A DNA stretch of 64,000 nt, taken from the UHGV virus genome UHGV-1963645; one strand, given 5' to 3'. The first letter of the stretch is position 1, and each line of letters begins with the position of its first letter. Position numbers and translations under genes: made by a program. The stretch is from a virus. Below the pieces are notes generated by a model. It was not told where the DNA came from and did no database searches. It worked only from the letters and a program-made list of their open reading frames with translations. Shown piece by piece: positions 1,272 to 28,873 of this stretch.

Positions 1272-3191
1272 ATGGAACAGTTCAATATCAATAAAGGGGT
1301 GACGATCAAACCTGGGCTTGACGCGCTTCCCCCGCCAGTGACTGATGATGAATATCGCGCATTAATGGCCGGTGAGGACCGCTATCTGATGACGGAATCC
1401 AACACCCTGGAGGAAATCGAGGCTACGTTCTTCTATGACACGCCGATCCACTGGTGTGCTACGGATTTACTGGAGGCGATTAGTTCTACTCGTTTGCAGT
1501 TACACCGGACCATGCAGGCATTTGTCCGGGCATTGAACCAGAAGCTGAATGGTACCGGAATCTCTGCGGGGAGTGATAAAACGGGCGATGTGGCCCAGAG
1601 CGGCGCGCGCGCGATCGGCGGCGCTGAAATTGGTCGGGCACGTAACGTTAACGGGCTGCCGGTCCTGCCAGCCATTATTCCGCTCAGTGATGGTCAGACT
1701 ATCAGCATTCTGTTTCATAGCCCGACAGCGGAAAACCGGATCACCAATAGCGATACGCTGGTTGCTTTCCAGTTCTTACTGAATAAAAAAGACGTTACTC
1801 ACACCGTTGCTCCGATGAGTGGACGTGATATGACGCTGGCGCAGGTCACCATGAAACTTGCCAACCTTGCAGAGAAAAACTCGGCAAAATTCCAGCGTGC
1901 GCAGAAGAAGAAAAAAGCCCTTGTTGATGAAATAACCCAACTACAGGCTGACAGTGACCAGAAAGAGGATGCCATGAGCGACCTCGCGGATCAGGTGGCA
2001 GCGGTAGAAGGGCAGAAGGCAGATCTGGAGCAGAAAATTAACGCTGTTGCATCGGAAGCGGATTCTCTTTATGAAGAGAATGAGCGTTTGCAGACGGAGA
2101 TTGATCAGCTCAATCGCACTGGTGGGCGCGATACCATTGCTCCTGCGGGGATGACTGGTGGGTACTCTCGCGCGCTGACGGATCGCCTTGCCAGTATCAA
2201 AAATCGTATGCATATGAACGGGGAAGTGACGCTCAGTAATGGTGCATCAATGAAGCAATTCATTGAGGACGGCGAAGGGTATATCCAGTTAACCGATTCG
2301 GATGGCAGCGTGTACATGATCAAGGCTAAATCCATACAGGGTGTGGACATGGCAGATGCGATCGGCAAGCTGTTTAAAGCCTATAAAGCGGGTAATGTAT
2401 CGGAATATCTGGTCCAACCAGAAGAACATAAACCGGAAAACGTCGAACCTGAACCAGCGGAGGATACCGGTAGCTCTTCGCCTGAACCAGAAGTCTCTGT
2501 AGGTGCATATCGATATGCCCTGCAAATGCGTCCGGCGGCCCCTGGCGCAATACCTGAAGGTAACAAAGCAATTCTGCCGCGCCCTGATGAAGGTGACCCG
2601 TATTATGAATATGCACGCTACGGCATTGTTACTTACGATACCCCGCTTTCTGATCAGCAAATGAGTGAGTACGACCTGAAGTTATTGCCTCGCGAGGATT
2701 CTTTCGACTTCCTGGCGAAGACACTTACTAATGGTCCGTTTGGCAAATATGCACAAAAAGCTCTGGAGCTGGCCACCAGCTCACCAGACGAGTTCCGCGT
2801 AATGCTGAAAACTCAGTTTCAAAAAACTTTCCCCAATATTGCGTTTCCTGGGGGCGCTGGCATCGAGAAAATGGTGCAGAGCATGATCAATGCATTGCAG
2901 GCCGAAGTCGGTGAGATTACTCAACCAGAACCGGTCCCGGCACAGCCTGATGAAACGGTTAGCGAAGCAGATGCAGAGGCTAATAAAGCCATTGAATATC
3001 TCAATAGCGTGATGGATATGCAAAGCACTGACATGGCGGAGATCCGTAACGCCCGGGGCAATGTCCGGGAAGCGATTGCTGCCCTTCAGGCTGCCGGACG
3101 TTTTGAGGAAAACGAAGAGCTGGTTAACGGTGCTGCTCGCCACCTGGCTGATCTGCTGGTAGCAATCCAGAAAGCGGGGGTAGCGGCATGA
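1272..3191 (+). CDS. darA: DarA, capsid-internal anti-restriction protein precursor
   Basis: 639 aa, same length as P1 DarA; position between hdf and ddrA; coiled-coil central region. Confidence 0.8.
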   Translation: MEQFNINKGVTIKPGLDALPPPVTDDEYRALMAGEDRYLMTESNTLEEIEATFFYDTPIHWCATDLLEAISSTRLQLHRTMQAFVRALNQKLNGTGISAGSDKTGDVAQSGARAIGGAEIGRARNVNGLPVLPAIIPLSDGQTISILFHSPTAENRITNSDTLVAFQFLLNKKDVTHTVAPMSGRDMTLAQVTMKLANLAEKNSAKFQRAQKKKKALVDEITQLQADSDQKEDAMSDLADQVAAVEGQKADLEQKINAVASEADSLYEENERLQTEIDQLNRTGGRDTIAPAGMTGGYSRALTDRLASIKNRMHMNGEVTLSNGASMKQFIEDGEGYIQLTDSDGSVYMIKAKSIQGVDMADAIGKLFKAYKAGNVSEYLVQPEEHKPENVEPEPAEDTGSSSPEPEVSVGAYRYALQMRPAAPGAIPEGNKAILPRPDEGDPYYEYARYGIVTYDTPLSDQQMSEYDLKLLPREDSFDFLAKTLTNGPFGKYAQKALELATSSPDEFRVMLKTQFQKTFPNIAFPGGAGIEKMVQSMINALQAEVGEITQPEPVPAQPDETVSEADAEANKAIEYLNSVMDMQSTDMAEIRNARGNVREAIAALQAAGRFEENEELVNGAARHLADLLVAIQKAGVAA

Positions 3192-3553
3192 CACTATCAG
3201 CTATTGAGTTAATGGACCTCAGCGATAAGTTGGATGCTCTGATGTCCAAAGCGGCTACCGCGAGTGGCATGGAGTTGCTGGATATCAGCGATGAAATTGA
3301 CCAGATCATGCAACAGATGGGGTACGGCGCGTCCGGCGGCAGTAGTGGCGAGGAAAAACAACCTTCGGTACATGATGGTGTGCCAAAACTGGTTGCTGAT
3401 TTCCTGGCTGATAAATTCGTCGATCAGAGCACTGATGCATTTATCGGTACGTTACAGGACTTGAGTCAATATGTTGGCACATACATCGACCTGGACCAGG
3501 TTAAACAGCACACGGCGGCATGGATAGCCGCCAACATTAAAGAGGCAGCGTGA
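3188..3553 (+). CDS. ddrA: DdrA-like small protein of the darA operon
   Basis: 121 aa ORF overlapping darA stop (coupled); assigned by synteny; its 3' end abuts the tnpB element. Confidence 0.55.
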   Translation: MTLSAIELMDLSDKLDALMSKAATASGMELLDISDEIDQIMQQMGYGASGGSSGEEKQPSVHDGVPKLVADFLADKFVDQSTDAFIGTLQDLSQYVGTYIDLDQVKQHTAAWIAANIKEAA

Positions 3554-3555
3554 CA

Positions 3556-4895
3556 TCCTCCACGCCCCGAAGGGCGTGGATTCCTGCTACGTTCAGGCTG
3601 TCGCCTGAATCATTTCGGTGGGTTCCTGCTTCAACGGGCGGCCTGACTGCACCATCCCTCCACAGGCAAGTACGGCGTGCCCCGCCGCTAAAATGTTACG
3701 AGCGCCGTTTACATCGGCGTTCGCTGTATATCCACATACCTGGCATCTGAATTTACTTTGTGACAGGCGATTTTCTTTCGCTGTATGACCACAGCACGCG
3801 CAACGCTGGCTTGTGTACGCTGGCGGAACAGCAAGCACCTGACCGCCACGCCAGAGCTGCTTGTACTCAAGCTGGCGGCGCATTTCATACCAGCCCTGAT
3901 CCAGTATCGAACGGTTTAAACCTGATTTTGCCCGGACATTGCGACCCGGATGACTTATCGTTCCCGCCGCTGACTTTGACATGTATTTAACCTTCAAATC
4001 CTCAATGACAATCATTGCGTGGTTTTTGCTGACGGTCGTTGTGACTTTGTGAAGGTAGTCCCTGCGGATATTTGCGATACGGGAATGCAGTCGCTGTATT
4101 TTGCGTTTCTGCTTCTGCCAGTTGTTGCTGAATTTGACCTTGCGGCTTAACTGTCGCTGAAGTCTCGCCAGCTTCTTCTGGTTTTTCTGAAAACTATTTA
4201 CAGGTTCAAAGACTGTGCCATCTGACAGCGTGGCGAGTTTAGCCACGCCAGCATCCAGTCCGACCATTGATGCTGAAGGGTGAACAGGAGTGGATACCTC
4301 TCTTTCTGTCTGAATACTGATGTACCACTTACCGCAGGACTGGCTGACAGTAACATTTTTCACAATACCCGTGACCTGACGGCTATTCCGGTAGCGCATC
4401 CAGCCAAGTTTCGGCAGAAAAATACGGCTGTTTTCCTGATCGAGCTTAACACCCTGCGGGTAGCGGAATGCATCATTCTGTCCCCGCTTTTTGAATCGGG
4501 GAAAAGCTGCCCGATTCTGGAAGAAGTTTTTGTAAGCCCGCTCAAGGTCTTTCAGTGACTGTTGCAATGGCTGTGAGGGAGAATCTTTAAGCCATTCGGT
4601 TTCAGTGTCTTTTTTCCACTCAACCAACCAGGAAGCCATTTTCGTGTAAGGGATGTATTTTTTACCGGCCTCATGATTCTCATTCTGAAGCGCCAGAGCA
4701 CGGTTGAAAACGAAACGACAAGCTCCGGCAAAGCGCCTCATTTGACGCTCCTGTTGACCATCTGGTTTTAACCGGAATTTGAATGACACCTGTTGTTTCA
4801 TGTCACTATTTTAAGCAAAAATAGCCGGGAGGAAAACTGTGCCTTATATCCCCACTATGAGGAGCGTAGGGGGCGGCACATTGGATAAGGCGTAA
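3556..4895 (-). mobile_element. IS200/IS605-family insertion carrying tnpB only (IS1341-like); boundaries approximate
   Basis: Solo tnpB antisense between ddrA and ddrB; subterminal hairpin CCACGCCC-CGAA-GGGCGTGG at about 3567-3588 just past the tnpB stop; no tnpA nearby. Confidence 0.45.
3593..4801 (-). CDS. tnpB: TnpB (RuvC-like, OMEGA-type RNA-guided nuclease family)
   Basis: 402 aa; RuvC-I GLDAG, RuvC-II IEDL, zinc finger CACCGH...CQVCG, Ruv[14 protein letters not shown] all present. Confidence 0.9.
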
Positions 4896-4900
4896 CAGGG

Positions 4901-7888
4901 ATGAGCTTAAGCGATCAGGTGGTAATGGCCACCAGCATAGAAACGCTGATCGAGCTGCTAAAGAACCTGCCCGATTATGGGCGGGTTTCGTATGTGGTGA
5001 CAGCGAAGGGAGACGAGGTAAAAACAGCGTTTGATATCGTCGATGCCTCAGCTCTTTTGGTATCCAATACTCTGGATGGGAAAATTAATCCTGACTATCC
5101 CCAGGAACTTCAACCGCGCGACCGGACCCGCGCATCCAGCCTTCTTCAGGTTAACCAGATATCCAAGGATTTGCGGCCTGCTCAGCTTACCGATTCCGGT
5201 CTATCCAGCCATGGCGCGCCGATAATTGGTGAGGACAATGCCGTTGAGTCAGGTAATGGACGGACCATGGGGATCATTAAAGCCTATCAGGACGGCAATG
5301 CGGATCGGTATCGTGAGTACCTGATTGATCATGCGACCGAATTCGGCATACGACCTGAAAAGGTTGAATCAATGACGGCTCCGGTACTGGTGCGCCGCCG
5401 GTTAACTAAGGTTGACCGCGTTCAGTTTGCCAAGGACTCAAATATTTCTGATCTTCAGGAAATGGCAGCCAGTGAAAAGGCTTTTGTTGATGCCGACAGC
5501 ATAACACCGGCGATGATGGCGCTTTTTAACCCGTCAGAAAGCGGAGATCTGCTTAGCCGCAGTAATGACACGTTTATTCGCGGATTTATGACGCAAGTTG
5601 GTGCCACACAGGCGGCTGGCCTTGTAACTGAAGATGGGCGACCAACACGGCAACTTGTAGACCGTATACAAAACGCGATCTTTGCCAAGGCATATAAGGA
5701 TGCGCGCCTGGTAAGGATGGTTGCAGAAGAACCTGATCCGGATATGCGTAATGTTCTGACGGCGCTTAATGCGGCAGCCAATGATTTTGTCCAGATGCAG
5801 GCTTTGTCAGGAGAAGCGCACAAGCAGGCTGTGACAACTATTGTTGATGGCATTGAGACAGCGGATAGCCTCGATAAAAAGGCGCTGGCGGCATTGAAAG
5901 ATGCGGTAGACCTGGTAAGGCAATCGAAGGAGTTAGGCCAGCATATTACCGATGTTATTGCTCAGGGGGATATGTTCAGCGAAACGGCCCCGGAAGTGAA
6001 AGCACTCGCGTTGTTCATCGTCGCGAATAACCGTAGCGCGAAGCGTATGGCCACCGCCTTTAAGTTGATGGCGCAACGTATCAATGATGAGTTACAGCAC
6101 CAGGGCCAGGCGCTCGGGGATATGTTTGGCGGCGGCGATGTGTCGTTACAGGATATCCTTCGCCAGGTGTCTCAGGAACTGGAAAACGAAGGCATGCAAG
6201 GGATATCCGGCGGTCTTTTCGAGTCCGTTTCCGGCGGTAGTTACAACGGTGTTGCTCCGTATACCAGTTTGCTATTACATCGGGCATCCGGCATCAAAGA
6301 CATTATTCATCTGATCAGGCTGCTTTCCCGCACAGATCCCCAGGATGAACAGCTTGTACAAGTGCTTGCGCATTTTGTTCGAATGCCTGTTGCCGACGTG
6401 AATAAATGGTGCCGATTATTCGGTATCAGCAATTCGTTACTTCGCGGATTGTTAAATCACGCATCCTCCCTTGGGCGCGACGGCTTTGATGAGATAGCGC
6501 AGGCGATACAAAACGGAGATATGCCACCAGCTATTGACTGGTTTTCCATTCGCCCAACCAGGGTGAAAGCATTCCTTAGCGCGGCGCATTCGGCATCACC
6601 ATTGGCAGAAATGGTTCAGAGGTTGTCGCTCATATTCACAGACCATACCGCGTTGGGTGATCTGACTCTGGACGAGATGAAAGAAGCCTCCATTCAGTGG
6701 GCCGATCAACAAAATGAGGTTAACTCAGACTTCTTGCCAGCATTCAGGAAGGCCGTTAGTAAAGCGGATGATTCCCGTGGAATTCTGAAGGCATTTAAGG
6801 CATTGCAAAGTCGGGTTAATAAACATGTCGGAGATATCGATGGGGTAACGGCGGAAGGCAGGGATATCCTTAAAGAGCACGGCATAACGCCAGAGTTTAT
6901 TGATGAGATCAGGACGGATATGCAGCGTGAGGTCGTATCGTCCCTGCAAATTGTAGCCAGAGCGTTGGCGGATGCTAATCCGAAGAGTGCGGCCATTGTT
7001 AACCGGGTTATTGGTGATATTGAAGCATCGGAGGGCATGGGGGCGCTGAAACTCTTCCTTTCGCGAGCGTTTAATCCTAACGGCAATATTCTCCCTGGCA
7101 TTATTGGTGAGGCTAAAAAGTATGTCAGTGAAGAAGAACTTGAGCAGCTTGACCAACTACTTAAGCGATTCTCATATAACCCGCAGACACGCTGGCAAAT
7201 GAATCAGCGAAGTATGGGTTCGGTCCACGAGAAAGTGTTATCTGCCATGAACAGTGCGATCGCAAACTCATCCGTATCTGAAGAAAAAGCTCTTGAGTGG
7301 GCCGACTCTTTTATCACAGAAGAAGTGGAAGAAGCCCGCGCTGGACAGAATGGTGGGATAGACCTGCGCAAGGAACTTGCTGATATTTATCGCCTGACCG
7401 GCGGGGAAATATCGACCTTATCAAAGGTAGTTCACCACCAGGGAAGGGCATATGCAAATCTAAATGGTGTTGTTGCTGTCAATTTGAACGATGAAAATGC
7501 AAGTGCACTGTGGCACGAGCTGGGTCATCATCTTGAGTACAGTAACCCCGGTTTGTTAGAGAAAGCCCGGTCATTCCTGAAGGCCAATGTTGAAGGGGAT
7601 AAGCCATCTTTCGTCAATATCGGTGGGCGTGGCAAGCCTGAATGGTGCTTCAGATCTCGATTGAGTAATATTTATATGGCGAAGGTATACCCGCCAGCCT
7701 CAGTAAGTAACACCGGGAAAATTCGGCAGAAATCACCGACTATTTCCAAAACGTCAGCAACGGAAGTATTCTCTATGGCTCTTCAGTTGTATCATGACAA
7801 AGAGGCCGCTGCCGCATCACTGATGAATGGTGACGGATTGCTGGAACTGTTATTAGGTGTGGCAAAGGAGCTAAATAATGCAGATTAA
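4901..7888 (+). CDS. ddrB: DdrB-like large anti-restriction-operon protein
   Basis: 995 aa ORF downstream of darA/ddrA; assigned by synteny and size. Confidence 0.65.
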   Translation: MSLSDQVVMATSIETLIELLKNLPDYGRVSYVVTAKGDEVKTAFDIVDASALLVSNTLDGKINPDYPQELQPRDRTRASSLLQVNQISKDLRPAQLTDSGLSSHGAPIIGEDNAVESGNGRTMGIIKAYQDGNADRYREYLIDHATEFGIRPEKVESMTAPVLVRRRLTKVDRVQFAKDSNISDLQEMAASEKAFVDADSITPAMMALFNPSESGDLLSRSNDTFIRGFMTQVGATQAAGLVTEDGRPTRQLVDRIQNAIFAKAYKDARLVRMVAEEPDPDMRNVLTALNAAANDFVQMQALSGEAHKQAVTTIVDGIETADSLDKKALAALKDAVDLVRQSKELGQHITDVIAQGDMFSETAPEVKALALFIVANNRSAKRMATAFKLMAQRINDELQHQGQALGDMFGGGDVSLQDILRQVSQELENEGMQGISGGLFESVSGGSYNGVAPYTSLLLHRASGIKDIIHLIRLLSRTDPQDEQLVQVLAHFVRMPVADVNKWCRLFGISNSLLRGLLNHASSLGRDGFDEIAQAIQNGDMPPAIDWFSIRPTRVKAFLSAAHSASPLAEMVQRLSLIFTDHTALGDLTLDEMKEASIQWADQQNEVNSDFLPAFRKAVSKADDSRGILKAFKALQSRVNKHVGDIDGVTAEGRDILKEHGITPEFIDEIRTDMQREVVSSLQIVARALADANPKSAAIVNRVIGDIEASEGMGALKLFLSRAFNPNGNILPGIIGEAKKYVSEEELEQLDQLLKRFSYNPQTRWQMNQRSMGSVHEKVLSAMNSAIANSSVSEEKALEWADSFITEEVEEARAGQNGGIDLRKELADIYRLTGGEISTLSKVVHHQGRAYANLNGVVAVNLNDENASALWHELGHHLEYSNPGLLEKARSFLKANVEGDKPSFVNIGGRGKPEWCFRSRLSNIYMAKVYPPASVSNTGKIRQKSPTISKTSATEVFSMALQLYHDKEAAAASLMNGDGLLELLLGVAKELNNAD

Positions 7889-8189
7889 AATCGCAGCGCC
7901 ATTAGGCGGAGATGCCATTATCGAATTTGATGATAATGAAGAAGTTTCCGGGCGTTTAAGCATTATCTCCGGTGACATTACCGAGGACATGATCGCTGAA
8001 GCCATAGCTGGGGCAAATCCCAATAGCTATATGGGATTCGTTAACACCCTTGATGCTCCCGCAAGTGATGTTCTCCGAACGCTGCATCTTTACGCTGGCT
8101 GGTTTGTTGATTGGCCAGCAGTAGATGGTGGCGATGAGGACGACGACGACGATGATTTTGGTGATCATGTAGACCAGATCGTATATTGA
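7878..8189 (+). CDS. hypothetical protein with poly-acidic C-terminal tail
   Basis: AAGGAG SD before ATG; overlaps ddrB stop; C-terminus DGGDEDDDDDDFGDH. Confidence 0.5.
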   Translation: MQIKIAAPLGGDAIIEFDDNEEVSGRLSIISGDITEDMIAEAIAGANPNSYMGFVNTLDAPASDVLRTLHLYAGWFVDWPAVDGGDEDDDDDDFGDHVDQIVY

Positions 8190-8192
8190 AGA

Positions 8193-8217
8193 AATCCCGC
8201 CAATCGGCGGGATTTTT
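8193..8217. terminator. bidirectional rho-independent terminator between convergent operons
   Basis: AATCCCGCC-AATC-GGCGGGATT hairpin followed by TTTTT. Confidence 0.6.
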
Positions 8218-8220
8218 ACC

Positions 8221-9315
8221 TCACGAGAAGCTTTTTTCTGATGTCAGCCAACAGTGCTCGTGCAAATCTCTTGGTGGTTTTTCGACAAATGCCTCTTCAG
8301 CCACATCCTGCCAGGGGATTTGTTTAGCCCATTCAGTTATAGCGTTATGGTTTGCCGAGAATAACGGTATTGTATAGGCCTTCAGCCAGTCTAATGTGCT
8401 GGAGTTGTGTTTTTGAGCGTGATGTTTCGCATGGTGTTTGGCGATCACGATCGTAGGCACTACCCATTTACTACCGTCAGTCATTGTGAAGTGCATATTA
8501 CGGGGAACAGATGACTTTTCCATCAACTCCCGAATCCCGGGGAATTTCCCCAAGATCAATCGGCGATATTCATCGCTATTGCGCCCACCAAACTCTTTGG
8601 CTTTGAATTCAAGATATGCTTCAGAAACGAGAGGTGAATCCTCTGTGTTTAGAGTTATCGCCGTGAAAAAACCAGCAGGATTGTTTTTACTATGGGCCAA
8701 CCGGTGATGCGAATCATAAAAGTACCCTTTCTCGCGTTCCGATGGTTTCGACAGCAACAGCAGGCGCGAGTCATAATTGGTTAAATTGCCAGTTATCACT
8801 GCATGAGCGCGATCGCTGATTTCCGCCGAGTTAATAACGATGAAAAGATCGTGCGGTCCAGTAAAACCAGCCAGAGACTCTTCGTTATTCAGACAATAGG
8901 TTATATAGACGCATCCCCATGTTTCACTGATATGCACCAACCCTTTGTCAGGGTGTATTCTGAAATAATTGCCAAGAAAAGGGTGTTTTTGGGTAACTCG
9001 CTCCCAATAACGGAACATATAGTCAATTATTGTTTTTCGACTATCGTTAATAGCAGGAGAAACAACCACTGTACGGGAACACGAATACAGTATTGTTTGC
9101 AGGATGCTAATCACTGCCACAATAGAGGTTTCCCCAATACCATGTGGTGTGGTGGCAGTGACTTTGGCTCCGGTGTTCTTTATCGCGTTAATAATTTTTG
9201 CTTGATGAGGTGTTAACTCAATATCAAGCAACTCTTTCGCTGCCAGTTCCCAATTGTCTTTATACTGTTCTATCAGTGCTAACCAGGCAGATTCATTCTG
9301 TATACGATTAATCAC
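8221..9315 (-). CDS. terminase large subunit (PacB) N-terminal ATPase-domain paralogue with degenerate Walker A/B
   Basis: 364 aa; clear alignment to PacB of this window over about 250 aa; Walker A GHGTGKS becomes PHGIGETS, Walker B IIDEA becomes VINSA; lacks C-terminal nuclease region; GTG start overlapping upstream stop. Confidence 0.75.
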   Translation of the reverse strand: MINRIQNESAWLALIEQYKDNWELAAKELLDIELTPHQAKIINAIKNTGAKVTATTPHGIGETSIVAVISILQTILYSCSRTVVVSPAINDSRKTIIDYMFRYWERVTQKHPFLGNYFRIHPDKGLVHISETWGCVYITYCLNNEESLAGFTGPHDLFIVINSAEISDRAHAVITGNLTNYDSRLLLLSKPSEREKGYFYDSHHRLAHSKNNPAGFFTAITLNTEDSPLVSEAYLEFKAKEFGGRNSDEYRRLILGKFPGIRELMEKSSVPRNMHFTMTDGSKWVVPTIVIAKHHAKHHAQKHNSSTLDWLKAYTIPLFSANHNAITEWAKQIPWQDVAEEAFVEKPPRDLHEHCWLTSEKSFS

Positions 9316-10222
9316 TTTCCACCTCTTCCGTGGTGTTTTCTCGCAGTTCTGTTAATGCAGCACGACACAGGTTCCGGGCTTTGGCTATAGCCACACTTTT
9401 TACCTCATCCGTCATTGTGCAGGTAATGTACTGATCGAGTTCTTCAGCTCGGATGATGCTTTTCCCTATCATAAACTCTATTTGCCAGAGCAGATCGGCA
9501 TCCATCGCCAGTATTTCAGCCTGGCCTTCTGGGCCTGCGGGGAAGCAAACATAAGACTGTTTGCCCAGGCCGATAACTCGACAACTTGCTTCAAGAATTG
9601 CACGCTTGAGGTCTGACTTTGTAACTGAAACAGGTTGATTTTCACCTGTGATTACGCCGTTGACATGGACGTGGAAGGGCATGTAGCTTGAAATTCGCTC
9701 TACTTTCCATACGCCAGCAAGCGATCCTTCATGCAGCACGATGGGGGTAACCGCGAGTTTCATCTCACCATATAACTGCTGGCAGATAACTGGATTACTG
9801 AATACATCCAGAGGTTCACACTCAAACAGCGGCGCAATCTGCATGAGGTCCATCATGGTCATACCAGGGGTACGAGCAGTAATGAATTTGCGCATACCAG
9901 TATCCATTGCGCTCCAGATTGCTACACCATGCTTTTTGCTCACTTCTTCAGTAAAGCCAAGGTGGCACATGATGGTTTTTTCGATAGCCAGATCGGAGAT
10001 AGAAACCTTTTCGCCAGGTACACCATCATTATTGATGGTCACTTCGACACTCTGGCCATTACGCAGGCGGTATTGAATTGCTTTAGTATTTTGTGCTGCC
10101 ATAGTCTTTTCTCTGCTTAAAAACTGATGTATTGCGCCTTCAGGTGGGTCAGGAATGTTTTCCCACCAGCGAAAGCAATATCTCGGGGTGTTCTTTTCGT
10201 GAAAAGCGCGTTCCATTGCCAA
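9308..10222 (-). CDS. hypothetical protein, coupled upstream partner of the PacB-like gene
   Basis: 304-aa ORF (track start is TTG); alternative ATG starts at 10216 and 10102; no recognisable domain. Confidence 0.5.
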   Translation of the reverse strand: MAMERAFHEKNTPRYCFRWWENIPDPPEGAIHQFLSREKTMAAQNTKAIQYRLRNGQSVEVTINNDGVPGEKVSISDLAIEKTIMCHLGFTEEVSKKHGVAIWSAMDTGMRKFITARTPGMTMMDLMQIAPLFECEPLDVFSNPVICQQLYGEMKLAVTPIVLHEGSLAGVWKVERISSYMPFHVHVNGVITGENQPVSVTKSDLKRAILEASCRVIGLGKQSYVCFPAGPEGQAEILAMDADLLWQIEFMIGKSIIRAEELDQYITCTMTDEVKSVAIAKARNLCRAALTELRENTTEEVESD

Positions 10223-10304
10223 CTTTGGCGTTTTTTAGCGAGTTCGTGCTTTTGTTGGCGTTTGGACCACCGCTTTTCTTTCAGTCGTTTTTTACTCATA
10301 AACT

Positions 10305-10793
10305 CTAAAACGGAATATCGTCTTCAAAGTCCATTGGAGGTTCGTTATTGGCGCTGCTCTGAGGTTTGCCGCCACCGCTGTATTGCTGGTGGTTTTGAGG
10401 TTGGTTTGACTGCCCCCAGCCATTTGAGGACTGTGAATCGTCGCGGCGAGCGCCGATCATTTGCATGGTGCCGCCCTGGCTGACGATAATTTCCGTCGTG
10501 TAACGTTCTACACCGGCGTCATCTGTCCACTTACGGGTTTTAAGTTTCCCTTCGATGTAGACCTGAGAACCTTTTCGTAAATACTCACTCGCGATTTCAG
10601 CAAGTTTTCCGAACAAAACGACTTTATGCCATTCTGTTTGCTCTTTCTGTTGGCCTGTTTGCTTGTCGCGCCATGATTCATTCGTTGCGATGCTGAGTCT
10701 TCCGACTGCTCCGCCATTTGGTATATACCTGATATCTGGGTCTTGTCCCAGGGTACCTATCAGGATGACTTTATTTACACCGCGTTGTGCCAC
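10305..10793 (-). CDS. ssb: single-stranded DNA-binding protein
   Basis: OB-fold SSB sequence with Gly/Gln-rich linker and C-terminal DFEDDIPF tail. Confidence 0.95.
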
Positions 10794-10812
10794 TTATCTC
10801 ACCTAATAAAAT

Positions 10813-10829
10813 AAATTAATTAGAGCAAT
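10813..10829 (-). promoter_or_regulatory. C1 repressor operator (1 mismatch to ATTGCTCTAATAAATTT)
   Basis: AAATTAATTAGAGCAAT between divergent ssb and lyz. Confidence 0.6.
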
Positions 10830-10853
10830 AATGTATATCTTTGAAACGTAGCT

Positions 10854-10872
10854 AACAAGTGATTTGCATTAT
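10854..10872 (+). promoter_or_regulatory. candidate Lpa-dependent late promoter
   Basis: AACAAGTGA element followed by -10-like hexamer; same element upstream of prt and the tail cluster. Confidence 0.4.
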
Positions 10873-10962
10873 CCTGTACCTTCTAAAGGGATCGAGTCAG
10901 TCGGTATTGGCTGTGAATGGGTGTTTGTCCTGGAGCGTAAAAAATTCGCTTATGAGGTCTTT

Positions 10963-11520
10963 ATGAAGGGAAAAACAGCCGCAGGAGGCGGTGCAATTTG
11001 CGCTATCGCGGTGATGATTACCATCGTGATGGGTAATGGCAATGTGCGAACCAACCAGGCGGGGCTTGAGCTGATTGGTAACGCTGAAGGTTGCCGACGT
11101 GATCCATACATGTGCCCGGCGGGTGTATGGACTGACGGGATTGGTAATACACACGGGGTAACGCCAGGCGTGCGAAAAACCGACCAGCAAATCGCCGCTG
11201 ATTGGGAAAAGAATATCCTGATCGCTGAACGCTGTATTAACCAGCACTTCCTGGGCAAAGACATGCCCGATAATGCCTTCAGCGCAATGACAAGCGCGGC
11301 ATTCAATATGGGATGCAATAGTTTACGGACCTACTACAGCAAAGCGCGAGGCATGCGAGTAGAAACGTCCATCCACAAGTGGGCGCAGAAAGGAGAATGG
11401 GTGAATATGTGTAACCATCTCCCTGATTTCGTGAACAGTAACGGCGTGCCCCTGCGAGGTTTAAAGATTCGCCGTGAAAAAGAACGCCAGCTTTGCCTGA
11501 CGGGACTGGTCAATGAATAA
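10963..11520 (+). CDS. lyz: SAR endolysin (lysozyme)
   Basis: 185 aa from ATG with GAGG SD; N-terminal Gly/Ala-rich signal-arrest-release domain then lysozyme core (GLELIGNAEG); longer track ORF 10864 start rejected. Confidence 0.9.
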   Translation: MKGKTAAGGGAICAIAVMITIVMGNGNVRTNQAGLELIGNAEGCRRDPYMCPAGVWTDGIGNTHGVTPGVRKTDQQIAADWEKNILIAERCINQHFLGKDMPDNAFSAMTSAAFNMGCNSLRTYYSKARGMRVETSIHKWAQKGEWVNMCNHLPDFVNSNGVPLRGLKIRREKERQLCLTGLVNE

Positions 11521-11811
11521 ACTCCGGCAGCTCCGCCGACTTTCGACAATGAAGTTATCGCTGGCGGCGATAGTTTTCGACTCGATTTTCATGGCGGTAT
11601 ATGTGCTCAATGAGACGTGGCCACTGGAACCGCTATTATATGCCGGGCTTCGGCTGTGCCTGACATTTTTGAGCATGGCTGCAAGATTGATGCAGCAGAA
11701 AGAAACCGCTTCAGATTGCCCACGTCGCGCGGTGCGAAAATATATGGCACGCAGACGAAGGCGATAATAGTTAACGAGAACCCCGGCAGCCGCCGGGGTT
11801 ATTTTTGATGG

Positions 11812-12861
11812 TTATTTAAACGGATTGATTGAATTATTAAACGTGATGATGCTTGTCTCACGCGGTGCCTGGACGTTAGCCGCTTGCGGAACCTCCTTAA
11901 TTTTCTTGGTGACAGGCAAGTTGCGTGCGCCAACTTTGATCAGAGATTCGAAAAGTGTGGCAACGATTTTTGCATCACCAGGTTCTTTGAGGCGGAATGC
12001 GTCTTTTTGGGCGGCGGAGACGAAAATCGGGAGGTTATCCAGTTCGTCTTGCATTGCTGCCAGCACATCGTCGCGGATACCCGCTGTTTCCTCCAGCAAA
12101 GCGATTCGCGCTTCAGCATCTGCGATCTTGGCCATTGCTTCGAGGTGGCGGCCCTGGCTTTCGAGTAGTGCGGTTTCCAGTTCTGCCGTACGCTCTGTCG
12201 CCTCCACCATCATTTCCAGTTCAGCCATTTTGCCGTAATGGGATATAACGGCCTGCACTGACTCGTCGGAGTACCCATGCGCCGCCAGGGACTCTGCCAG
12301 TAAAGATTTAGAATCCGCGCTTTCAAACATTCCGGCGCTGGCAGGATGATCCAGACTGATATAGTTCGGCGTTGTCACATAATCCACACCATGGAAGCTG
12401 GTGGTTACAGCGATTTTCCCGGACTCACGCCCGCCAGTGGCCCAGCTCCAGCCACCAGCTCGGCTTTCGATCATCGCGGCGACAATTTTACCCGGCTCTG
12501 TGTTAAGAATTTCCTGTGTATGGGTAACGATGCCGTTGTCGTCAACGGATATAGCTACTGTGCGGCAAGCTGGAACATTGTCGATAACGACCGGGCGACC
12601 TTCCACCATGATCACGCTGGTTTCTGGTACTTCCAGTTTGCCGGTCAGCTGTCGGCGACCGTGACCGTAATAGCCGAAAAGCTCACCAAGGCGTAAACCT
12701 TCCTGAGTTTCCTTGCTTTCAAGCATGGTCTTTACCGCGCTTAATACATACTGTCGCCCGTTCTGGCGACCTTTTCTAGCATTACTATAGAGACAAAAGC
12801 GGTCAGTGACCGTTTTCAAAACATCAGTCATTCTCGTTTCCCTCTTTAAAGACCGATTCAA
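11812..12861 (-). CDS. pro: Pro-like head processing protein (putative prohead protease)
   Basis: 349 aa ORF between lyz and portal-like gene; assigned by synteny; start may be internal. Confidence 0.55.
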   Translation of the reverse strand: MNRSLKRETRMTDVLKTVTDRFCLYSNARKGRQNGRQYVLSAVKTMLESKETQEGLRLGELFGYYGHGRRQLTGKLEVPETSVIMVEGRPVVIDNVPACRTVAISVDDNGIVTHTQEILNTEPGKIVAAMIESRAGGWSWATGGRESGKIAVTTSFHGVDYVTTPNYISLDHPASAGMFESADSKSLLAESLAAHGYSDESVQAVISHYGKMAELEMMVEATERTAELETALLESQGRHLEAMAKIADAEARIALLEETAGIRDDVLAAMQDELDNLPIFVSAAQKDAFRLKEPGDAKIVATLFESLIKVGARNLPVTKKIKEVPQAANVQAPRETSIITFNNSINPFK

Positions 12862-12877
12862 GGATTTGCGCCAGTTC

Positions 12878-14542
<1,665 letters not shown>

Positions 14543-14576
14543 TTAATTAGAATAATTCGCATCGTGTTTGAACGGA

Positions 14577-14597
14577 ATTTAACACTAGTCACTTGTT
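14577..14597 (-). promoter_or_regulatory. candidate Lpa-dependent late promoter for prt-pro
   Basis: minus-strand AACAAGTGACTAGTGTTAAAT about 40 bp upstream of prt start. Confidence 0.4.
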
Positions 14598-14608
14598 AAG
14601 GATTACCA

Positions 14609-17600
14609 ATGAACAAGCTATCTATGGGTGTGTTTCGCTGTTCAAGTGTCAGCGAAATATTGAAATACATTAGGGCAATAACATCTCACCGAGCGCCGAT
14701 TAAATACGGCGTGGAAAAGGTGGAAGGCAAAAGCTATGACCGACTGCGCCGGGAGGCGAATCAGAAGGCGATAGATTTGCTTAATTCGCTGGTGGACGGC
14801 GCGACACTGACAGATGAACAGCGCCAGATCCTGGCCGGGTACACTGGTGAAGGCGGCATTGGCGGGTCCGTCTCCGAATATTACACACCAAAGCCTATCG
14901 CTGAAGGTGTCTGGGAGATCATGAAGCTCTACGGCGCGGACGTAGGTAACACTCTGGAACCATCGGCGGGAACCGGCGTTTTTAATGAGACAAAACCGGT
15001 TGGTACGGTGATGACCGCGACTGAGATCAGCAGTGTTTCCGGTCGTATAAACCAGTTGTTACACCCGGAAGACAGCGTACAGATTTCCCCGTTCGAACAG
15101 CTGGCTATAAACACGCCTAACGATTCATTCGACCATGTTGTGGGTAACGTTCCGTTCGGCGGTCGTGATAACACACGCAACATCGATAAGCCTTACGCAG
15201 AAGAAACGGACATGGGGTCTTACTTCATGCTCCGCATGCTGGACAAGATAAAACCTGGCGGATTCATGTGTGTGATTGTGCCGCCGTCCATTGTTTCAGG
15301 TTCAAACATGAAACGGTTACGCCTGCGCCTATCACGGAAAGCTGAATTTCTTGGTGCCCACCGCTTGCCTACCGGTACTTTTGACGCAAACGGGACCAGT
15401 ACAGTTGTTGATGTGGTGCTGATGCGCAAACATCCGGCAGAGATGGCTGAGAAAATCCCCCTGGTGGATGAAAGCACTCTCGAATCGGCAAATGTGCTTT
15501 GGCCAACGTTTATTTCTGGCAAGTGGTTTGAAAAGGACGGCCGCCGGTTTGTTCATGGCACCCAGGAAAAGGGCTTCCAGGGGCGTATTGAGGTTCGTGC
15601 CGACGGTCAGATTGATAACCAGGCTCTTAAAGCGAAGCTGATTCATCGTTTCGAAAGCCGTATCGACTGGTCTTTGCTCGATATGGCTGAACCGTCACCG
15701 ACCGCAGACGTTGTTGGTGAAGGGGAAATGCGCCTGATTAATGGCGTATGGCAAAAATATGCTGGTGGTCGCTGGATTGAAGCTGATGCCGGGAAGGAAC
15801 TTAAGATCGATGCTGCCAGTTATGGCGCGGATAGCTGGGAGGCTCTTCAGCGTAACCTGACTACAACAGAAGGCCGTCTCGGCATGACATTTACCCAGAT
15901 GGCAAATGTCCGCGATAAGTACACCACATCAATCAGCGACGATATGGTGCAGCTGGTGGACTGGATTAACAGCCAGCCTGAAAAATACCGTGAACGCTTG
16001 TATCGCGGGGCGATGATTGGCCGGATGTTAATTGAATATCAGGACATGAAGGCCGCCGGGCATAGTGCTGAACAAATCGAACAGCAGCGCCTTTCTCTGG
16101 TATCCCGTTTGCAGGCAGAGATTGACCGTTTTGGTAACCCCGGTCGCGGTCCGATAGCGAAATTGTCGGGGAGCGGTGCGCGCGCCTGGTTTGCTTTCCG
16201 TGGTGCAATTAAGCTGGATGGCACTATTTCTGACGAGCTGACAGGGAAGCTGGTTACGCATGATTCCAGCGCAAGTTATGACTCCACCAGCTATCAGGAC
16301 ACCCTGCGTTATCTCTATAGCGATCTCACCCGCGATCCAATCCAGCTCGATGATTTCCGCCTTGCGTTTACCGGCGAACTGCCAGCCAGTGATGAAGAGT
16401 TGCTTAATTTATTGGCCAGCACCCCTGGTATTGCGGTTTCACCGTATGGCGGGATTGTTCCGTTCGCCCGCGCCACCAGCGGCGACATTAACGAGATAGT
16501 GGCTCCAAAACAGGAATTCCTCGCCACACTCCCCGACGGTCCAGTAAAGAACAACGTCCTTAATCAGCTGGCAGCTATCGAAGAGAAGCGCATCAAGACG
16601 CCAGCAGATAATATCCGGTTTAAGCTCAATAGCCGTTGGTTCGACCGTTCCGTCATTCTGGAATTTTTGCAGGAAAACGGCTATCCGGATCTGCGCTATG
16701 TGCAGTCAGTGCAGCTGGAAGGCGACGAAATGGTTTCTGACACCTATCACGGTGGTGATGGTCTGTTCGTCGGGCACCGATACGGTGTCGTCCAGCGCAA
16801 GGATAAAGAAACAGGTGAGATTCGCTACGAGTGGGACCGTAAATCAGGTGAAAACGCGACCGGGTTCCCGGCACAGCTGGAAAAGTATCTCAATGGTGCG
16901 CGTATCGGTGGCAAAGATAGCGCGACGGCGAACGGCTACCGCGAGCAGATGGCACTGCTTGAGGACCAGTTCAATAAGTGGATCAAGACGCACGATCGCT
17001 ACGATGAGCTGGTTGCCAAATACAACGATGTGTTCAATAGCAATATCCCGTATGAACACTCTGGCGATCCGCTTGGGTTGAAGGGATTAAGCGGTAAGCG
17101 CCAGCCATTTGATTACCAGAATAGCGAGGTGCGCCGACTGTCCGAAGATGGGCGCGGCATCCTGGGCTTCGGCACCGGGCTGGGTAAAACTACGACCGCG
17201 CTGGCGCTTGAGGCGTTCAACTATGAGAACGGTCGCTCCACCCGTACTGCGTATGTAGTGCCTAAATCAGTGCTGGAAAACTGGTATTACGAAGCAAAAG
17301 AATTCCTGAGTGAAGAGGCATTCAGTAACTACCTGTTCGTCGGTCTTGATGTGCTGATGGATGGCGATCAGATTCGCCAGGTGCAGGTGCTCGATGAGAA
17401 CGGTAAACCTGTTCTTGGTACTGATGGCACTCCAGTTATGCGCGATGCTCTTAAGCTGGCAGATGAAGCCACTATCACGGCGCGGATGAACGCGATCCCG
17501 CACTCAAATTACCGTGCAGTCGTGTTTACCAAAGAACAATACGCCCGCATTCCGCTACGTGATGACACCGTAGATGAGCATGCACAGGATATGCTTTATG

Positions 17601-20600
17601 ACTTCGTTGCCGCCGGACGCGTAGCCAGCGCAATGGACTCCGACTCCCACCGCAAAGAGGCCGCGCGTCGCCGGGTATTGTCGGAGTATTCAGATACCGG
17701 CACCGAAAAAGCAGAGAAGTATCCGTACTTTGAGGATATGGGCTTCGATAGTGTGATCGCTGACGAAGGTCACAACTACCGCAATAGCTATAAAAATGGT
17801 CGCGAAGCGTCACAACTGGCCTATCTGCCCACCAGCGCGGTGGCGCAATCGGCGCGAGATATGGCAATTAAAAACGCGTACCTGATGAAAAAGAATGGTG
17901 GGCGCGGGCCGGTTCTCCTGACTGCAACGCCAGTCGTTAACACCCCGATCGATGCATACAACATGCTTTCTCATGTTCTGCCGAAGGAATACTGGCAGAA
18001 CATGGGGATCTACGGTCCTGATGACTTCGTTAAATTCTTCGGCAAGACCAGGCTGGAAACGGTACAGAAAATTAGCGGTGAAGTTGAAGAAAAAATGGCG
18101 CTGGTGGGCTTTGAAAACCTTGATGCGCTGCGCGGTATATTCCATCGCTGGGTAACGCTTAAAACGGCGGAAGACGTTAAGGATACCGTGGAGATCCCGG
18201 AGCTGGACGAACACCAGCAGGATGCACCACTTACTGAAGAACAACTGGCGGCGTATGAAGAATTGCGTCAGCAGGCGGAAGCGGCGGCCAAAGCCAACAA
18301 TGGCGTAACGACCTCGGTCAATGAAGACGGCGTGATTGAGCACGAGAAAGCCCGTCCGATCTTCTCAATAATCAGGGATATGGACCGCGTATGTACTGAC
18401 ATGGACCTGTACTATCGCCGGATCACCTATCGTTTCCTGCCGGAGTACGCCGATGCGGTGCAGCAGCTGGCGGACAGTTTGCCTAAACAAGCCACCAGCG
18501 AAGACGACGACAGTGATGATTCAATCACGCAGCAATCGCAATACTCCCTGATAGATAAGGGCGAGTTTATTCAGTTGCAGGTTCCGGAAGCGTTCGAGCA
18601 GGAAGTGAATAAGCGCCTGGCCAGGTTTGGCATTGACGAACAGACCGTAACTCACCCCGTTACGCCCAAATACGCGAAGCTGATTGCCACGCTGAAGGAG
18701 TTTTTCCCGGAAGGTAAGCAAATCATCTTCACCGATGAAAAAACGCAGCACCAGAAGCTCAAGCGCATTATCTGCAATGCTCTTAACCTTGAACCTTCAA
18801 AGGTGGGGATACTGAATGCTCAGACGGTTGCCGAGGCAGGTAAAACCGGTAAGAAACTGAAAGCGGTTAAACCGCCGAAAGAGTTACCGGATGAACCAAC
18901 AGATGCACAGATAGCGAAATACAACGAGCAAATGGCTCTGTATGACGCCTATATCGCGCAGCAAAATGAAATGTCGTTGGGCGGTCTGGAAAAGATTGCA
19001 GCCGACTTCCAGGAGGGCCGGACTCCGATCATCATCTGCAACAAAAAGGCAGAGGTGGGTATCAACCTGCATCGAGGAACGACTGACATCCATCATCTGA
19101 CGTTGCCATGGACTCCAGCCAGTATTGCGCAACGAAACGGTCGCGGTGCCCGAGTTGGCTCCAACCGTGCAAGCGTTCGCGTTCACTACTACTGCGGCAA
19201 GGGGTCTTTCGATGAATACCGACTGAAGACGCTGAAGCGTAAAGCAGGCTGGATCTCCGATATCCTCCGTTCAGATAAGTCAGAAATGGAGAACGCCGAC
19301 GCCAACGATATGATCGAAATGCAGATGTATACCGCGAAGGATGACGGCGAACGTCTGGCAATGATGCAGGTTCAAATGGATAAGGCGAAAGCTGCGAAAC
19401 GCGCTCGCCAGAAAGAACAGGCTACTATCGACCTTCAGAACTACATCAAGGCGCAGCACGCAGCTGGTGAGGATGTGGAGGTACTTACCGCTGAATTGGA
19501 GCGAAGCAAAGCGGAACTTGAAAAGACCACCGCCGACGTCGCCAAATTCAAACAGGCGGTAATGGCCAAAGCAGCTGATAACGCAGACTGGAAAGCCCGC
19601 TGGGGTAGCGTCCATCACACAGACCGTATGTTGTTAGCACAGTATCGCGCGTCGTTGAAAAGCGCCATTCAGCGCAAGGCTAATATCTCTCAGGCCATCT
19701 CCCGCTATGAGAAATTATTGAACCGTACTCAGAAGGCCGCGACGGATATCAAACGCCTGCGCCCGCTGGTGGAGGATGCAATAAATAAAGGCATTCTGGA
19801 TGTTGATCCTGATCTGGTTAACCATGCGAATGAGTTCCTTGTTATCGGCGATCGCTCATGGCGTGTAGGCCAATACTATGATTGTGCCGGTGATATCGTT
19901 CGCATTAAGTCGCTGGACTTCGACAGCCAGCGCGCAGACGTGGAGATCATCTTTACCTTCAAAGGCACCAAATCGGGTAACTGGGATGTGAAGACGCTGG
20001 ATAAACAGGTTGATGTAACTCCCGATGAAGATGCTGTTATGCAGAAAATCAGTGGTGGCGTCTCCATCGCCGGGATTAACGACATCGTTTCCTGTGACGA
20101 TTTCTACCGTTTCCAGCAGCGCGGCATGATCAAAATCACTGACTCATACGGCGTTCAGACTACAGAGTCAGGCTATAGCATTGATTTTGTTGGTACCTAT
20201 ACGGACCCACTGAAGCATGCGGTTTACCCGGATCGCCGTGACGGCGCGCTGAAGTCGTCAATTGCAAAATGGGTGCTTGGTATGATGTCGGAAGGGAATA
20301 ACCGCCAGATCCGTTCGGCAGAAGCATTCCTGGTTGAACTGTTTGGCTCCAATTATGGCGATGTAATCGCGTCATACGGAGATACGCTATCCCCTGAAGC
20401 AATTCAGGAGAAAATAGCGGATGCGATCGCCAGAATGCCGGAGAAAACAAGCCAGGGGGCTACTCGTAACGGGGATTCTGAACTTGAAGTCACCAATGCC
20501 ATTTTCGGTACCAATGAGTTCCGGGCGTCAGATTATGAGATCACCACAGCACAGTTTGGCACCATTGGCATTTACAGCAATAAAGCCGAGATCAAGCAGG

Positions 20601-28534: not shown

Positions 28535-28873
28535 AATGGCAGCCTCCTTTTGCTAATTTAAGGAGCTACCGCGTGAGGTCTCAATCTCAATGGCGGTAGC
28601 ACTGACTGGGTTGAGACTACCGGCGCAAAAGGGAACCGGCCTGCCTTTCGGCAGCCCAGCCAGCACTACCATTGATCTCTGAGCTAAACGCTACGTATGG
28701 CTGTGCGATGGCATGACACAAAAAAAGACGCTTTTGGCGTCTGTGTCGCCTTTTGCATTATCCGGGGTCTCAATCCCGGCACCCGTTTTAATGAGGTGCC
28801 TGATAAGCATAAACCGAAAATGCCTCAAGGCGCAAGAGGTCAGGTTCAATGTAACATCGGTAGTTAAAAAACA

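Follow-up and report, generated by a model that had tools for sequence, protein, structure and literature searches.

The stretch of viral DNA analysed here, UHGV-1963645 (64,000 nucleotides; the window), carries a 1335-bp insert between ddrA and ddrB of a P1-like dar operon. The insert is very probably a fossilised, non-autonomous IS609-type element with an intact TnpB and omega-RNA whose predicted specificity is the empty ddrA-ddrB junction. A single event of single-strand peel-and-paste, 3′ of a TTAT at the stop codon of ddrA, would have brought it into an ancestral P1-like phage-plasmid. The omega-RNA, with a scaffold spanning the 3′ end of tnpB and the right end of the element, would take its guide from the flank past that end, antisense to the 3′ end of ddrA. 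Together the guide and TTAT would specify the ddrA-ddrB junction in its uninterrupted form, as P1 and most of its relatives have it. Vertical inheritance, together with homologous recombination between P1-like genomes, would account for the persistence of the element, and cutting of empty sites by TnpB (non-restorative homing) may help. The sequence shows what the element is, where it ends, how its ends are altered, the structure of its omega-RNA, the purifying selection and the matches to the target; from these we infer nuclease activity, use of the guide and homing.

Insertion site and boundaries

The breakpoints of the insert are unambiguous when the window is aligned to the uninterrupted ddrA-ddrB junction of phage P1.

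3550 to 4884, minus strand: whole inserted element, 1335 bp, tnpA-less and IS609-like, IS200/IS605 family; limits from the breakpoints against the P1 junction
4885 to 4888, minus strand: TTAT target and predicted target-adjacent motif (TAM), directly 5′ of the left end; ATAA on the plus strand

Where P1 reads GGCAGC followed directly by ATAAGGCG, the window has GGCAGC, positions 3550 to 4884 and then ATAAGGCG. On the strand of the element the CCTTAT-GCTGCC of P1 has become CCTTAT, element, GCTGCC, with zero duplicated bases and no target-site duplication. The minus strand thus runs from a 5′ flank ending in CCTTAT through a left end that starts with CCAATGTGCC to a right end that finishes with GGAGGATGTCAC, after which the 3′ flank begins with GCTGCCTCTTTAATG. 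This is insertion in the manner of IS200/IS605 elements, 3′ of a specific tetranucleotide and without target duplication or terminal inverted repeats. The gene order around the insert is lydA-lydB-hdf-darA-ddrA-insert-ddrB-hxr, and identical junctions are found in RCS47, SJ46, 813R1 and one Salmonella IncY plasmid.

The Y1 (HUH) TnpA that marks autonomous members of the family, and only those, is missing from the element: tblastn with four family TnpA proteins detects no TnpA homologue in the 64-kb window (best E=0.57). This layout agrees with the tnpB-only IS1341 type, which is the majority state among tnpB genes (bioRxiv 10.1101/2023.03.14.532601). An earlier note on this DNA had described an intact, tnpA-less TnpB antisense between ddrA and ddrB, and the open reading frame, the Pfam domains, the RuvC and zinc residues and the negative tblastn search bear it out. 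Its suggestion that P1 lacks the element is likewise confirmed by the uninterrupted junction of that phage. The limits of 3556-4895 given there locate a real element at the junction, but alignment to P1 places its true ends at 3550 and 4884.

The TnpB protein

3593 to 4801, minus strand: tnpB coding sequence, 402 amino acids, intact (open reading frame, Pfam and structure alignment)

All the hallmarks of a TnpB are present, namely a helix-turn-helix/OrfB region, a split RuvC domain with its D-E-D triad and a zinc-ribbon TNB domain with four cysteines. The Pfam matches are PF12323 HTH_OrfB_IS605 (60 bits), PF01385 OrfB_IS605 (119 bits) and PF07282 Cas12f1-like_TNB (86 bits), all above cut-off. 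The best natural structure match is ISDra2 TnpB (8bf8/8exa/8h1j; E=9.4e-52, residues 5-376 aligned). In this alignment D183, E267 and D363 fall on the catalytic residues of ISDra2 TnpB, and two CxxC pairs (C334/C337 and C353/C356) make up the zinc finger. By analogy the protein would act as a TAM- and guide-dependent double-stranded DNA nuclease, with TTAT as predicted TAM and GCUGCCUCUUUAAUGU as predicted guide. A literature search on the biochemistry of the IS609 TnpB returned only its purification in one screen (PMC12781874).

It is exceedingly improbable that a phage has repurposed the protein as a TldR-like, nuclease-dead transcription factor. Phage context and the absence of tnpA, and nothing further, would suit such a regulator, but the three RuvC residues and the zinc finger are conserved and the gene lies within recognisable left and right transposon ends. 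With the catalytic triad intact this candidate was ruled out.

Inspection by eye shows a TAAAAT 6 nt ahead of the ATG of tnpB (window 4802-4815, minus strand) and no Shine-Dalgarno sequence, and the same TAAAAT is kept in other tnpA-less derivatives (L005, L006 and L007). This arrangement hints at a leaderless tnpB mRNA created by deletion of tnpA.

The omega-RNA scaffold

3550 to 3734, minus strand: omega-RNA scaffold with eight conserved helices, overlapping the 3′ end of tnpB and the right end (covariation)
3734-3732/3618-3616, 3719-3715/3707-3703, 3688-3683/3677-3672 and 3666-3662/3629-3625, minus strand: omega-RNA helices 1-4
3658-3656/3638-3636, 3654-3651/3642-3639, 3607-3604/3597-3594 and 3580-3572/3567-3559, minus strand: omega-RNA helices 5-8

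A structured RNA that overlaps the 3′ end of tnpB and the right end, and that stops at the transposon boundary, is the expected form of an omega-RNA, and covariation supports one here, as the earlier note had anticipated. The alignment covers 220 nt upstream of the right end in 45 distinct copies. The search for homologous proteins gave only proteins that are >90% identical, and the diversity for covariation came from contigs chosen as one genome per species. RNAalifold proposes 40 pairs, 17 of them with compensatory changes. Paired cells amount to 94.8%, compared with 35-54% when the partners are slid by 1-3 columns (terminal hairpin in contiguous register). Changes on both sides affect 18 pairs (67 cells) versus 6-12 pairs (7-29 cells) in the slid controls, and none of 500 shuffles reaches any of the observed covariation measures, although part of this signal sits in coding sequence and the terminal hairpin doubles as the DNA hairpin bound by TnpA and is hence not exclusively RNA evidence. 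Folded as a single sequence, the scaffold of the window has z=-3.68. Rfam at gathering thresholds recognises no family within the element. Sub-threshold matches to RAGATH-18, HgcC and sot0042, to be taken as leads only, fall inside the scaffold region; these families have been described as tnpB 3′-end RNAs or TnpB guide RNAs (PMC4615843; PMC13565253).

The guide and its predicted target

3534 to 3549, minus strand: predicted 16-nt omega-RNA guide GCUGCCUCUUUAAUGU, in the flank 3′ of the right end and antisense to the last ddrA codons
3513 to 3533, minus strand: terminator-like hairpin TGGCGGC...GCCGCCG with a U-rich tail, in the ddrA antisense strand (consensus scan, with a number of hits no higher than chance)

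In the established TnpB mechanism the guide is the flank that follows the right end (PMC8612924; bioRxiv 10.1101/2023.03.14.532601), and by analogy the guide here would be the 16-20 nt of flank past position 3550. TTAT joined to GCTGCCTCTTTAATGTTGGC is exactly the empty P1 junction. Written with its TAM, the predicted target is TTAT-GCTGCCTCTTTAATGT. A 32-nt probe that covers both the TAM and 20 nt of target has perfect matches in 275 PLSDB plasmids, and about 80 of 356 empty-site plasmids are without a perfect target. The window has just one similar site, at the junction of the element itself, with TCAC in place of TTAT, and no TTAT-preceded copy exists. The own locus would therefore be protected, because TCAC and not TTAT precedes the guide sequence. 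The 3513-3533 hairpin lies directly 3′ of the predicted guide and is found in P1 too; it could end the omega-RNA transcript.

Two empty-site genomes, JL22 and phi456 (L091 and L094), have G for A at position -10 from the junction, which changes ddrA by K118E. The mismatch corresponds to window position 3539, that is, position 11 of the predicted guide, inside its expected TAM-proximal seed.

Transposon ends and mobility

3559 to 3580, minus strand: right-end subterminal hairpin UCCACGCCC-UUCG-GGGCGUGGA, with 3559-3567 pairing with 3572-3580
3550 to 3553, minus strand: right-end cleavage tetranucleotide TCAC; GTGA on the plus strand
4802 to 4884, minus strand: left end, with outer stem TGTGCC/GGCACA, a remodelled inner hairpin and no TAAAA

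The ends were compared with a family set of eighty related loci, drawn from contigs chosen as one genome per species, together with chromosomal copies of E. coli; comparisons of the ends refer to the roughly 50 relatives listed. Full elements of this family are ~1748 bp long, with a Y1 tnpA divergent from tnpB. In most related loci listed, TTAT, or less often TTAC, precedes the left end. Nearly all of them have a right end of the form GGAATCC-hairpin-GGAGGATGTCAA, after which the flanks are unrelated. The target and the internal left guide covary across species (L007-L063), with TTAT-TAAAA in 18 loci and TTAC-TAAAG in 4; the family obeys the base-pairing rule of IS608.

The right-end hairpin of the window copy has 9 bp and a UUCG loop and lies 13 nt beyond the tnpB stop codon; GAAU is 5′ of the hairpin foot, and the element ends 10 nt 3′ of the foot, the distance at which IS608 is cleaved (PMC3201880). 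The hairpin that the earlier note had placed past the stop codon is thus real and is the IS200/IS605 right-end hairpin, with a stem of 9 bp rather than 8. The window copy thus has the hairpin, GAAT and a spacing of 10 nt, and its terminal tetranucleotide is TCAC, not TCAA. The latter occurs in nearly all of the relatives listed (L082 has TTAA), and in all of them the tetranucleotide ends in A. The right-end hairpin of SJ46 (L087:1251-1290) has one changed stem base and a loop in the opposite orientation, CGAA where the same strand of the window has TTCG, which resembles a flip of the hairpin loop.

At the left end the family consensus is GCCG-TAAAA-CCCCGTCC-TTCA-GGGCGGGG, and the window reads GCCG-CCCCCTAC-GCTCCTCATA-GTGGGG, so that TAAAA is absent. 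The outer stem is preserved through a compensatory change from GCGCC/GGCGC to GTGCC/GGCAC. In contrast, the inner hairpin has 6 bp and a 10-nt loop in the window versus 8 bp and a TTCA loop in the family. The guide that in the family stands 5′ of the hairpin foot and pairs with the target is thus missing. An IS608 that is mutated in its left-end guide or at its right-end cleavage site no longer forms the synaptic complex (PMC3201880), and by these rules both ends would be poor substrates for a TnpA. Since the ends are altered and tnpA is missing, classical transposition is unlikely now. The element is therefore best described as an IS200/IS605 member by descent that is derived and probably immobile.

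The TCAC end and the remodelled left end without TAAAA are common to RCS47, SJ46, 813R1 and the Salmonella IncY plasmid. On this evidence the insertion in P1-like genomes is of single origin, because all copies have the same junctions and the same peculiarities of their ends. Independent insertions at the same site were considered and rejected, since every copy carries the idiosyncratic TCAC end together with the remodelled left end.

Family, distribution and prior reports

IS609-type elements are abundant in E. coli. IS609/insQ is found in 5015 of 5426 complete E. coli genomes, 4868 of these having most of the element, at a median of 2 places per genome. The best match per E. coli record is mostly 90-99% identical, and the chromosomal copies examined are ~95% identical from element nucleotide 100 onward. 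At the two chromosomal loci examined (L003 and L004), tnpB is intact and encodes 402 amino acids, and tnpA is a pseudogene with frameshifts or internal stops. This chromosomal state of TnpB without TnpA parallels that of the phage-plasmid copy.

Derivatives of 1332-1336 bp without tnpA also occur, independently of one another, in Citrobacter, Kluyvera and a further family of E. coli plasmids. The last is represented by a second, independent IS609-like element of 1336 bp (L005:3469-4804; plasmid NZ_CP022228.3, 92.5 kb) with TTTAT as target, canonical TAAAA and TCAA ends and a 66-nt remnant of tnpA. Its host belongs to a family of ~89-96 kb E. coli plasmids (~17 plasmids matched) with phage-like genes (Ref nuclease, ead/Ea22-like, DUF968).

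The insertion in the dar operon is already known, being annotated in phages and plasmids, and it represents ordinary IS200/IS605 biology. RCS47 has the same insertion, 99.7% identical over 2.8 kb and labelled 'insQ transposase IS605', and it is annotated as well in SJ46 and in vB_EcoM-813R1 ('IS609'). The interrupted junction occurs in 72 PLSDB plasmids, several of them 100% identical and annotated 'RNA-guided endonuclease TnpB family protein', and in P1-like plasmids of ~64 complete E. coli genomes. The uninterrupted junction is found in 356 PLSDB plasmids and also in P1, P7, JL22, phi456 and others. The insertion is thus carried by ~17% of P1-like plasmids (72 filled versus 356 empty in PLSDB). 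Residence in every P1-like dar operon, part of what the earlier note had named as refuting its interpretation, is therefore not what is observed. IS609 with cleavage sites TTAT/TCAA was described in P1-like plasmids by Venturini et al. 2019, who place it only within this stretch of the backbone and whose size of 1340 bp matches (PMC6906374).

Selection, mosaicism and persistence

The ratio of nonsynonymous to synonymous substitution rates (dN/dS) of tnpB is 0.19 between the window and SJ46 (dS 0.098) and 0.15 between the window and the Salmonella plasmid. Flanking genes have a similar dS of 0.05-0.10. For ddrB the ratio is 0.044 between two insertion-bearing genomes. On these ratios both tnpB and ddrB are under purifying selection since the insertion.

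The element and its surroundings are mosaic. At element positions 113-533 SJ46 has the chromosomal alleles. A clade of flanks common to the insertion-bearing genomes was looked for, and the flank haplotypes do not cluster. SJ46, for example, is nearest in its flanks to Ro157c2YLVW, a phage with the empty site, and to the right of the insert the Salmonella plasmid equals P7 at every variable site from +79. The haplotype switches lie within 91 bp to the left and 79 bp to the right of the insert. Farther out, the best phage match over 7800-20000 is 813R1 and not RCS47, so the backbone beyond the dar operon is mosaic as well. Repeated homing with short conversion tracts would produce such mosaic flanks around a mosaic element.

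Several findings weigh against an intact TnpB and omega-RNA aimed at the empty junction. A scan for sigma-70 promoters and terminators gave counts no higher than in shuffles, with no promoter above chance. The last base of the scaffold has changed from A to C in the window, which might affect the RNA. The 813R1 copy (L088:1294-2319) lacks one nucleotide at each of element positions 12 and 270, and the loss at 270 frameshifts tnpB (the annotated product is shorter, at 341 amino acids); the gene is thus dispensable in at least one lineage. The low dN/dS of tnpB could come in part from gene conversion by chromosomal IS609 copies. Finally, P1-like genomes in general recombine at a high rate, from which the mosaicism would be expected just as well.

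These points lend themselves to a plainer account, in which the element is a harmless, decaying selfish remnant that travels as an inert passenger linked to dar, its reading frame kept intact by limited time and occasional gene conversion from IS609. This is conceivable but doubtful. It would explain why both ends are degenerate and tnpA is absent, why 813R1 tolerates a frameshifted tnpB, why most P1-like plasmids are without the element and why patchy alleles are held in common with chromosomal copies. It sits less well with a tnpB dN/dS of 0.15-0.19 at dS ~0.04-0.10, comparable to that of neighbouring phage genes, with catalytic residues and omega-RNA helices that are all intact, and with changes specific to the 3′ half of the SJ46 copy that do not derive from chromosomal copies.

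At the other extreme, TnpB could serve as a gene drive or a weapon against competitors, cutting co- or superinfecting P1-like genomes with an empty junction and so converting or destroying them. This is rather unlikely, though several observations fit it. The guide and TTAT are perfect at the empty site in 275 plasmids and the own site is protected; purifying selection acts in spite of missing tnpA and unusable ends; and the identical insertion stands on diverse flank haplotypes with breakpoints <100 bp away. Moreover, 'non-restorative homing' is a concept recognised in the literature (PMC13565253). However, an efficient drive would be expected in more than ~17% of P1-like plasmids, co-residence is restricted by P1 immunity and IncY incompatibility, and the mosaic flanks are as well explained by general recombination. 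It is with like reserve that we suggest that a P1-like sublineage may keep the immobilised TnpB/omega-RNA cassette for RNA-guided homing or exclusion: produced in the lysogen, it would cut the empty junction of P1-like genomes that come in or are already co-resident, and so either copy itself into them with no need of a TnpA or eliminate them.

Proposed effect on the dar operon

3188 to 3553, plus strand: ddrA, 121 amino acids, length and last residue preserved
4901 to 7888, plus strand: ddrB, 995 amino acids, intact; the 16 nt before its ATG are retained from the P1 arrangement

The element has rebuilt the end of ddrA. The GCA-TAA of P1 has become GCG-TGA, with the GTGA of the element supplying the last base of codon 121 and the TGA stop. 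The insert's plus strand holds no convincing intrinsic terminator, only a weak 5-bp stem among terminator-like hits no more numerous than expected by chance.

The earlier note had proposed altered expression of ddrB, and in a wider form the insertion would change dar expression, and with it anti-restriction capacity, by a polar effect on ddrB and by antisense transcripts that reach into ddrA. The geometry is suggestive: 1335 bp that are untranslated on the plus strand split ddrA from ddrB and remove their 12-nt coupling, and a tnpB/omega-RNA transcript must run antisense into ddrA. Even so, such a regulatory effect is improbable, and the sequence lends the proposal of altered ddrB expression no support. 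The gene is intact, its dN/dS among insertion-bearing genomes is 0.044, its 16 upstream nucleotides are kept, and the sole terminator-like hit on the plus strand is the weak stem. Since ddrB is non-essential in P1 (PMC10695390), its loss would be tolerable yet has not happened, which makes its preservation informative; the strong constraint argues against ddrB having been silenced.

Elsewhere the window has the ordinary RNA features of a P1-like genome, namely two RNAs of the P1 ImmI region, C4 antisense RNA (75 bits) and isrK (59 bits), and three tRNA genes (Met, Thr and Asn), in the regions 28589-28799, 55472-55547 and 57548-57700, all on the minus strand.

Significance and comparison with known systems

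As an object the element is of low importance, being a common, annotated IS609-type tnpB in the RCS47/SJ46-like subset of P1-like phage-plasmids. Its interest is as a natural test case, in which a TnpB without TnpA or usable ends is nevertheless constrained and its predicted guide fits the allele of most competing relatives. What the analysis adds is that dead ends, a constrained nuclease gene and a guide matching rivals make a testable case of TnpA-independent homing. Support for such homing by TnpB has so far come mainly from laboratory constructs. If the nuclease is active, the system could reveal directly whether homing without TnpA, from one phage or plasmid to another, allows a TnpB to spread or defend a mobile element. 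There is a practical side as well, since P1-like phage-plasmids carry extended-spectrum beta-lactamase (ESBL) genes and serve as delivery vectors: where P1-based vectors are used in co-infection experiments, the outcome could be influenced by an active nuclease directed at the dar junction of P1.

The closest known system is IS609 of E. coli, which is 90-96% identical to the window copy in tnpB and the right end (element nucleotides 100-1334) and has the same TTAT target, left-end outer stem and right-end hairpin with GAAT. Its chromosomal copies, in contrast, are ~1748 bp long and have a divergent, usually pseudogenised tnpA between the left end and tnpB. The P1-like copy is without tnpA, starts tnpB with ATG instead of GTG, encodes a different N-terminal decapeptide, has a remodelled left inner hairpin without TAAAA and ends in TCAC.

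IS608 of Helicobacter pylori is cleaved 10 nt 3′ of the right hairpin foot and has guides 5′ of each foot (PMC3201880). Like the IS609-type family it has a target tetranucleotide 5′ of the left end and a cleavage site that pairs with a guide; the corresponding right-end parts of that family are TCAA 10 nt 3′ of the foot and GAAT 5′ of it. The window copy departs from this scheme in the missing left-end guide and the C at the fourth position of the right cleavage site.

ISDra2 TnpB of Deinococcus radiodurans resembles the window protein over its full length (E=9.4e-52), including the RuvC D/E/D residues and the zinc finger, and its omega-RNA likewise lies at the tnpB 3′ end and right end and takes its guide from the flank (PMC8612924). 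The window element differs in its predicted TAM (TTAT and not TTGAT), in lacking tnpA and in its location in a phage-plasmid, and it is known here from sequence.

A functional parallel may lie in the free-standing homing endonucleases of T-even phages, such as SegF and SegB. There, too, a nuclease gene stands between conserved phage genes, the target (in the window a predicted one) is the nuclease-free allele of relatives and the own allele is protected by the insertion (PMC13565253). In contrast to these enzymes, recognition by the window element would be RNA-guided instead of protein-based, and its cleavage and homing are predictions. If the element does act as a homing or exclusion device, it would be the RNA-guided counterpart of these T-even enzymes.

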